Of a stretch of 44,696 nucleotides of DNA, positions 44,405-44,592 are shown in pieces. Location: the sequence record PV841870.1; one strand, 5' to 3'. This DNA is from Escherichia phage Pandora71. Both the position numbers and the translations under genes were made by a program. Below the pieces are notes generated by a model. It was not told the DNA's origin and did not search any database. It saw only the letters and a program-made list of their open reading frames with translations. Each line of letters begins with the position of its first letter. Position 1 is the first letter of the stretch.

Positions 44405-44592
44405 GTTTTATTGCATAAACTAAGCGGGACAGAAAGCGGGACAAACAAGGGGCGGGACAAAGCGGGACAGCACCCCCGTCCCGCCACGGATGGCGCGGCC
44501 TGGCGAGGAGCGGGACAAGCGGGACAAACCACAGTCTTTCAGACTAGACGGGGGTCAGTGGCCCCCCTCGTCTGAGACTGAATAAAATCCGG
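44405..44592. repeat. structured GCGGGACA-box array (copy B), matches 3' part of 16352-16660
   Basis: six direct GCGGGACA boxes plus one inverted; same terminal AGTCTTTCAGACT and GGGGG/CCCCCC hairpin as copy A. Confidence 0.85.

Follow-up and report, generated by a model that had tools for sequence, protein, structure and literature searches.

A duplicated iteron cassette downstream of the primase-helicase gene is a candidate replication origin of Escherichia phage Pandora71

A short repeat just 3' of the primase-helicase gene of Escherichia phage Pandora71, which we call copy B, appears to be a replication-origin cassette that is read by the C-terminal domain of the initiator itself, and from the comparisons given below we put the probability of this reading at roughly 0.6. 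An earlier first-pass annotation had taken the repeated sites as binding sites of the initiator and copy B as an origin, and both proposals gain support here from the recurrence of the layout in distant relatives and from an iteron type that tracks the winged helix of the initiator.

Results

A duplicated element in a circular genome

The window, i.e. the whole 44,696-bp stretch of Pandora71 DNA that we analyzed, comprises an entire Dhillonvirus genome, that of a virulent HK578/SO-1-like siphovirus of E. coli, with an overall G+C content of 54%, and its DNA is ~93-94% identical to many database records. The suggestion that the window is a circular permutation of the genome holds, because the DNA of relatives (e.g. 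L129) is continuous over the junction between its end and its start and related records are circular. The genes on the + strand run in the order small HTH gene (41659-41988 in the ORF list), primase-helicase gene (41999-44263), small early genes, lysis, terminase, head and tail, and a block of replication and recombination genes occupies ~28.5-41.4 kb on the - strand.

The element is duplicated, as had been proposed: a direct repeat of ~195 bp is present as copy A (16476-16669) and copy B (44391-44585), with an 89% match between 16476-16528 and 44391-44443 and an 85% match between 16535-16669 and 44451-44585. Copy B begins 128 nt past the primase-helicase stop (44263), close to the earlier placement at 44405-44592 and ~140 bp after the stop, and its first iteron lies 161 nt past the stop. 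Copy A lies between the stop of the tail chaperone G/GT gene (16353) and the start of the tape-measure gene (16733), 16.8 kb from copy B on the circle. GenBank record GQ502199 (Sodalis phage SO-1) annotates a 'region A' and a 'region B' as mutually resembling repeat regions, and the bare observation is therefore not new. Our literature search found no paper discussing this repeat element, and the papers searched describe no replication origin for Dhillonvirus or its Guernseyvirinae-like relatives.

Anatomy of the two copies

The exact sequence GCGGGACA is found at 16 places in the window, where 2.06 would be expected, and the maximum among 100 shuffles was 7; short sites repeated this far above chance are what an iteron origin contains. 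Fourteen of the 16 fall into two clusters (16354-16610 and 44424-44526), and the two arrays are the densest 7-mer clusters of the genome. The arrays are real and non-random. The parts follow the same order in both copies: an AT-rich palindrome, four direct iterons, one inverted iteron, a spacer, two further iterons and a hairpin. The four direct iterons are spaced 12, 15-16 and 10 nt, the inverted iteron lies 7-9 nt beyond them, and the spacer of ~25 nt before the last two iterons differs in sequence between copies A and B. An AT-rich segment beside the iterons, another component of an iteron origin, is present in both copies, and it is common to all of the lineages compared below.

In copy B, the AT-rich element (44391-44423, + strand, 24% G+C) is a candidate DNA-unwinding element or conserved factor site, and it contains an inverted repeat with the arms TTATGCA (44398-44404) and TGCATAA (44412-44418) separated by N7. 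Four direct GCGGGACA iterons with the invariant core CGGGACA start at 44424, 44436, 44452 and 44462 (+ strand), the inverted iteron GCGGGACG (44477-44484, - strand, one mismatch) forms a 7-bp inverted repeat with the fourth of these, and the last two direct iterons start at 44510 and 44519 (44510-44526, + strand). An 84-aa ORF with a TTG start (44321-44575, + strand) crosses the iteron array and the hairpin, and several GenBank relatives have a 'hypothetical protein' annotated over this stretch; the ORF is probably not a real gene.

The core cassette of copy A (16476-16664) consists of the AT-rich element (16476-16508, + strand, ~24% G+C), iterons at 16509, 16521, 16536 and 16546 and then at 16594 and 16603 (all + strand), the inverted iteron GTCCCCGC (16561-16568) and the hairpin (16616-16664, + strand). 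Copy A has in addition an upstream part (16354-16468, + strand) with two palindromic iteron clusters (16354-16386 and 16433-16465) of the pattern GCGGGACA-G-GCGGGAC/GTCCCG-TTTT-GTCCCGC. An AT-rich TGCAT..TGCATAAACTAA element stands behind each cluster (16398-16430 for the first), and the iterons total ~15 in copy A and 7 in copy B. This upstream part is kept in 14 Dhillonvirus A copies, with point variants in some. Between the hairpin of copy A and the tape-measure gene, the extended -10-like sequence TGATACAAT (16688-16696, + strand) was found in 14/14 A copies; the consensus promoter scan did not call it.

Conservation within Dhillonvirus

An alignment of 30 copies from Dhillonvirus genomes (14 of A and 16 of B) shows little or no variation in the GCATAAA columns, in the CGGGACA cores and in the hairpin stems, whereas the spacers and the hairpin loop vary. 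The mean identity is 88% among the A copies and 85.5% among the B copies, and between A and B it is 81% within one genome and 78.5% between genomes. These values indicate that the duplication is old, that both copies are under selection and that there has been little gene conversion; copy A is, on this comparison, an old duplicate kept in 14/14 Dhillonvirus genomes examined. All 158 matching phage records contain most of the query, and among the records listed 59/60 have at least two matching places.

Three side observations were also made. The 7-nt loop of the AT-rich inverted repeat (44405-44411) occurs in two forms among the Dhillonvirus B copies, GTTTTAT and its reverse complement, ATAAAAC, as if the segment between the arms had flipped; this hints at pairing or recombination of the arms in vivo. 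'Campylobacter phage A144' (MG065648.1) encodes a primase-helicase that is 97% identical in protein, and 'Acinetobacter phage NJ01' (OQ221563.1) carries the copy B element at ~90% DNA identity; both host labels probably reflect contamination or mislabelling.

The hairpin

The last part of copy B is a 49-nt imperfect hairpin (44532-44580, + strand; CAGTCT..AGACGGGGG-loop-CCCCCCTCGTCT-GAGACTG), which folds as DNA with -12.7 kcal/mol (z = -4.3). Every lineage has a hairpin of 50-65 nt at the equivalent position, in which a three-tier shape is kept and the sequence is different: the lower stems are AGTCT/AGACT, ATCATC/GATGAT, TCCTC/GAGGA or TCTCC/GGAGA according to the lineage, and the apical stem is G+C-rich. 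With MAFFT and RNAalifold the hairpins were not alignable between lineages, and per-lineage folds and z-scores were used instead; nine representative hairpins beat shuffled sequence with z-scores from -2.6 to -4.5. The lineage with TCCGACA iterons has an exact inverted iteron in the hairpin loop. The inverted repeats of the hairpin could alternatively be bound by a dimeric protein rather than form base pairs.

A G+C-rich hairpin followed by a T-run would mark an intrinsic terminator, and no + strand terminator was called at either large hairpin, the sequences directly after the two stems being AATAAAATCC and AATAAGGTTT. A T-rich TTATTCATT lies behind the hairpin in other lineages, so that the hairpin may have some termination activity. 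Downstream of the copy B hairpin, CACGGCAGCA (44606-44615, + strand) is conserved in all lineages. As a separate observation, CACGGCAGCA/AACGGCAGCA occurs at 21 sites with at most one mismatch against 4.3 expected (44606-44615, 25684-25693 on the - strand and 19 with one mismatch, many of them within genes), and in every lineage, as well as in the second Klebsiella cassette described below, it stands just past the hairpin.

The presumed initiator

The primase-helicase (754 aa) matches PHROG 3228 'replicative helicase-primase', and AAA_25 (E = 9e-20) was the sole match in the Pfam search. We delimited an AEP/PrimPol domain (aa ~1-205), a Zn-like C/H cluster (aa 246-287), an AAA_25 RepA/DnaB-like helicase domain (aa 357-531) and, at the C-terminal end, a predicted winged helix (aa ~666-737) followed by an acidic tail. 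An AlphaFold model of aa 1-345 (mean pLDDT 85) had the AEP domain of the cyanophage S-2L PrimPol (6zp9_A, E = 2.9e-5) as its best PDB match and Mycobacterium Prim-PolC as the next. D87 and D89 (a DxD motif), D163 and the C/H cluster are invariant, and H120 is nearly so. The AF2 model of aa 640-754 has the order helix-helix-helix-strand-strand, the strands forming a beta-hairpin, with a pLDDT of ~80-90 in the domain. The top PDB matches of this model in Foldseek, all with E > 0.1, are nearly all winged-helix or winged-helix-containing proteins, among them linker histones H1/H5, Fur, ArlR, MepR and the ORC2 WH; P4 alpha was absent from these matches. A PDB sequence search gave a marginal match to RSF1010 RepA (1g8y, E = 0.53). 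From the AEP match, AAA_25 and the C-terminal model, we infer that the initiator is a PrimPol joined to a RepA-like helicase, a probable winged helix and an acidic tail, and we propose the winged helix, encoded at 43994-44209 (+ strand), as the reader of the iterons. The plasmid database contained no true plasmid homologues, the single full-length match being a Kagunavirus-like phage filed as a plasmid.

Iteron type and the C-terminal domain

To compare the cassette beyond Dhillonvirus, we used relatives whose primase-helicases are 37-50% identical, from IMG/VR and from Salmonella phage GRNsp27 (Guernseyvirinae; its iteron lineage takes in FSL SP-031 phages), Enterobacter phage phiEap-2 and Klebsiella phage VLCpiS11a. 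Seven lineages have the cassette layout directly 3' of the primase-helicase stop, each with 7-8-mers of its own (GCGGGACA, ACTCGCA, GGGGGAGA, CGGACAA, AGGGATA, TCCGACA and GGGGATG), and most have one or two inverted iterons at the equivalent position. The AT-rich GTGAATAGTTATGC and the downstream CACGGCAGCA are constant between lineages, whatever the iteron.

Proteins with cores 96-99% identical have different iterons where their winged helices are only 45-51% identical: L167 and L154 (core 96%, C-terminal 46%) have GGGGAGA and CGGACAA, and L161 and L165 (core 98%, C-terminal 51%) have CGGACAA and TCCGACA. Pairs with the same iteron have winged helices at least 68% identical even where the core is only 78-82% identical, as in L154 and L161 (core 82%, C-terminal 69%) and L158 and L179 (core 78%, C-terminal 83%). 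Over 12 loci, the C-terminal identity averages 81% for pairs of the same type (minimum 68%) and 52.5% for pairs of different type (maximum 69%), a difference reached in 0/2000 label permutations; the core identity is 87% and 81%, respectively, with different-type pairs up to 99%. In these sequences, the iteron type therefore tracks the C-terminal ~110 aa containing the winged helix, and not the helicase core. In pairwise profiles of relatives, the DNA identity drops ~340 nt before the stop, and between L179 and L167 it is back to 85-97% at +247 to +307, just past the hairpin; these breakpoints indicate that the exchanged unit consists of the C-terminal winged helix, the iterons and the hairpin. 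No other ORF family specific to an iteron type was found within 3 kb on either side. Because the winged helix and the iterons are physically adjacent, their co-variation could alternatively be plain linkage in one recombination block. The iterons are found in either orientation, and those of the ACTCGCA (Klebsiella) lineage are mostly reversed; this fits recognition of duplex DNA and not of RNA.

Six IMG/VR relatives (L152, L153, L155, L156, L159 and L162; 43-44% identity) have no array after the gene, implying that their origin is elsewhere. Terminator-like hairpins follow the gene in these six loci, in most of them together with a convergent gene, and L162 has seven copies of GGCAGCA ~1.5 kb downstream of its primase-helicase. 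IMG/VR scans with double and triple GCGGGAC(A) patterns gave mainly unrelated tandem repeats among the matches listed, and neither the 68%-identity Dhillonvirus-like contig (..._050407) nor any of the other lineages was found in a scan with the tape-measure protein.

A second cassette in other phages

GRNsp27 has a single cluster and no array before its tape-measure gene, and phiEap-2 likewise has a single cluster; the mechanism therefore does not inherently involve a second locus. Two full cassettes are present in each of the Klebsiella phages VLCpiS11a and 37P2; the second is in the late operon, flanked by the head-morphogenesis gene on one side and the spanin and scaffold genes on the other, and has iterons, hairpin and ACGGCAGCA in the same order as the first. 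The different sites of the distal late-operon copy in the two lineages point to independent insertions. A distal cassette appears to be advantageous, though the initiator family does not require one.

Neighboring motifs and other repeats

An iteron/palindrome cluster had also been noted beside copy B. The cluster is real, with a 40-nt direct repeat (44253-44292 and 44307-44346) and a palindrome (44275-44314) that hold three ATTGGTTGCC motifs (44275, 44329 and 44364, + strand, in the region 44253-44372); its motif, ATTGGTTGC(C), is a separate genome-wide motif and not the iteron. This motif is found near copy B at 44275, 44329, 44364 and 44646 (- strand) and again at 40 and 71, and other lineages have TGTTGGCTG at the equivalent position. 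With at most one mismatch, ATTGGTTGC occurs at 29 sites against 12 expected, usually as closely spaced pairs at intergenic, promoter-like positions on both strands; besides those near copy B, sites lie at 40-48, 71-79, 10754-10776 (- strand), 26863 (- strand), 30046-30066, 31958-31983 (- strand), 34920-34940 (- strand), 38554-38578 and 41459. A 20-nt sequence, TATATTGGTTGCACACCAAC, is identical at 68-87 and, inverted, at 10746-10765. ATTGGTTGC is probably recognized by a phage regulator that is conserved and acts on early promoters. The rightward early promoter previously placed at 45-73 (TTGCAT-17-TATATT) agrees with the consensus at 8/12 positions; the promoter scan did not call it, and we regard it as a guess only. 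Consensus promoter and terminator scans made no + strand calls in either repeat region or in 1-300.

Several other repeats were seen in the window. A 31-nt G+C-rich hairpin with A/T-run flanks, AATGCGAAGGGGCCATGTGGCCCCTTTTCTA, occurs at 25589-25619 and 28503-28533 (90% identical), and its copies, which bracket ORF 25617-26591 (- strand) and ORF 26888-28504 (+ strand), look like bidirectional terminators around a movable tail-fibre module. The second of these ORFs (538 aa) contains a 21/42-nt tandem coding repeat, CCATCAAGACGCAGACGGACCAGATTAAGACGGATACGCAGG (27423-27548), probably a fibre shaft repeat. In the - strand gene block, a 29-nt hairpin with tail, GGGAGGCAGTATTGCCTCCCGATGTGGTT, occurs at 29687-29715 and 30011-30039 (97% identical, 324 nt apart), and imperfect GTC/GTCGTC-rich repeats of 45-90 nt (37732-37950 and 40846-41127) in two - strand ORFs encode acidic D/E-rich repeats in both.

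Discussion

Judging from this anatomy and from the comparison with other systems, copy B and its flanks would act as an origin in the following way. The CGGGACA iterons would be double-stranded sites for the C-terminal winged helix of the adjacent PrimPol/RepA-like helicase/winged-helix fusion, and initiator molecules would collect on the four direct, one inverted and two direct sites. The gathered initiator would then open the adjoining AT-rich palindrome, load the helicase and prime synthesis, with the long hairpin as a single-strand or cruciform feature for loading or priming; the hairpin might also end transcription of the replication operon. Copy A would bind the same initiator inside the tail operon and, by analogy with SPP1 oriR, may be a second origin or an initiator-bound barrier, or else a P4-like partner of copy B. 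As a barrier, it would stall a fork coming from copy B and so switch replication from the theta to a concatemer-forming mode; in relatives, the annotated genes include those for an exonuclease, a Gp2.5-like annealing protein and a resolvase, and the SPP1 switch model needs proteins of these kinds. The cumulative GC-skew minimum lies at ~41 kb, at the divergent promoter region and at neither copy; GC skew follows gene orientation and therefore does not discriminate between origin candidates. The divergent promoter region (41435-41660), considered as an alternative origin, has no repeats.

Two other readings seem unlikely to us. One is a two-site origin of the P4 type, in which copy B would be ori and copy A a crr-like site, both needed in cis and bridged by the initiator. 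Identical iterons at both loci, both kept in 14/14 Dhillonvirus genomes examined, would fit this, as would the occurrence of two cassettes in a second lineage and the predicted C-terminal winged helix of the initiator, which recalls that of P4 alpha (PMC4234260). However, the initiator has an AEP fold and AAA_25 instead of Toprim and SF3, copies A and B are both complete cassettes, the distal site varies by lineage, and the single cassettes of GRNsp27 and phiEap-2 imply that the initiator family does not need a second site; the resemblance to P4 ori/crr as first put forward is thus unsupported. The other, about as improbable, is an element acting on transcription without origin function, whose hairpin would end or process the replication-operon transcript and whose repeats would be operators, e.g. 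for autoregulation by the primase-helicase or for another regulator, with copy A splitting the tail operon and a promoter of its own behind it. The element does lie between operons, oriented with transcription in both copies, its hairpin keeps its shape between lineages with the T-rich sequence behind it in others, one GenBank record marks a 'terminator' within the array, and the -10-like sequence after copy A is conserved; that a conserved inter-operon hairpin resembles a terminator too is a point against the origin reading. Yet the Dhillonvirus hairpin has no T-run behind it and no + strand terminator is called in either region, the orientation of the iterons is variable, a terminator in the middle of the tail operon would be costly, and a terminator needs no six or seven sites that co-vary with a winged helix.

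Less probable by far is a pac site or another DNA-handling site for the terminase or another phage protein encoded elsewhere. The two short-repeat blocks around a spacer are reminiscent of the P1 pac site, where blocks of short repeats flank a spacer, and several database records are linearised ~100 nt past copy B; against this, the terminase genes are ~5 kb away, two pac sites would be unusual, and the iteron type changes exactly at the boundary of the winged-helix domain. We likewise give very little credence to a structured non-coding RNA made from both loci, e.g. a protein sponge with repeated GGGAC motifs: the + strand folds beyond shuffled sequence (z = -3.1) and a TATAAT lies upstream of copy B (44385-44390), but the iterons are on both strands, no promoter was called, copy A lacks the TATAAT, and Rfam 15 gave no match at the gathering thresholds and only chance-level (miRNA) matches at E <= 1.

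The origin reading of copy B could be extended to a portable cassette, made of winged-helix tail, iterons and hairpin, that has been copied repeatedly into the late operons of several enterobacterial siphovirus lineages, with the GT/tape-measure junction as the site in Dhillonvirus and the head-morphogenesis/spanin junction as that in the Klebsiella phages. On this view, the distal copy would time the concatemer switch, as a programmed fork barrier or second origin to which the initiator binds, or would couple replication to late-gene expression. We offer this extension as a speculation that is more probably wrong than right; if it were true, the SPP1 oriR mechanism would be a general, convergently evolved strategy, testable in E. 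coli. Dhillonvirus and its Guernseyvirinae-like relatives are very common coliphage and Salmonella phage isolates, present in the BASEL collection and in therapy work, and the cassette provides a concrete, testable origin candidate together with an initiator domain and its presumed cognate site. The exchanges of winged helix and iterons seen in nature are a ready-made specificity experiment, and the recurrent second cassette in the late operon offers an E. coli system for the fork-stalling model of SPP1 oriR. In many GenBank records, the 'hypothetical protein' ORFs annotated over the array are probably spurious.

Comparison with known systems

In lambdoid O/ori, SaPI Rep-ori and iteron plasmids such as IncQ RSF1010, the specificity domain of the initiator and the iterons are exchanged together; the origin lies within the initiator gene or next to it, and its iterons adjoin an AT-rich region. 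By sequence, the nearest solved helicase to that of Pandora71 is RSF1010 RepA, though the match is weak (1g8y, E = 0.53). The Pandora71 iterons are 7-8 bp long compared with 18-22 bp in these systems, and the presumed initiator is, unlike theirs, itself a helicase-primase.

The iterons of P4 reportedly lie at two separate loci. P4 alpha combines Toprim and SF3 domains with a C-terminal winged helix that binds the origin repeats (PMC4234260). Pandora71 resembles P4 in having a multifunctional primase-helicase with a C-terminal winged helix, predicted in our case, and two iteron loci. The initiator of Pandora71 is of the AEP and AAA_25/RepA-like kind, however, and whereas P4 ori and crr are structurally different and both required, the two Pandora71 copies are equivalent complete cassettes. 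The archaeal plasmid pRN1 encodes ORF904, a prim-pol/helicase/winged-helix fusion, and its origin is a long stem-loop just past its own gene, the integrity of which is required (PMC4234260). The fusion initiator, with a winged helix that is predicted in Pandora71, and the stem-loop just 3' of the gene are shared with pRN1, which differs in its SF3 helicase and its lack of iterons.

The two origins of SPP1 are separated by ~13 kb on the circle, with oriL located at the gene for the initiator and oriR as an interruption of the late structural genes. [quoted passage not shown] Pandora71 is likewise a virulent siphovirus of ~44 kb with two origin-like loci of similar organization, copy B at the initiator gene and copy A interrupting the late genes, and we predict that in Dhillonvirus, as in SPP1, one initiator binds both. 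The function of the SPP1 loci has been shown experimentally, whereas that of the Pandora71 loci is deduced from their anatomy. There is no sequence or protein homology between the two systems, including to gp38, gp39 or gp40, making the likeness an analogy and not membership. SPP1 uses a separate origin binder (gp38), loader (gp39) and DnaB-type helicase (gp40) with the host primase, whereas in Pandora71 a single polypeptide would combine PrimPol, helicase and winged helix; and oriL lies inside gene 38, whereas the Pandora71 cassette lies 3' of the gene and has a conserved long hairpin. With these differences, the nearest documented arrangement to that of Pandora71 is, by analogy, SPP1 oriL/oriR rather than P4 ori/crr.
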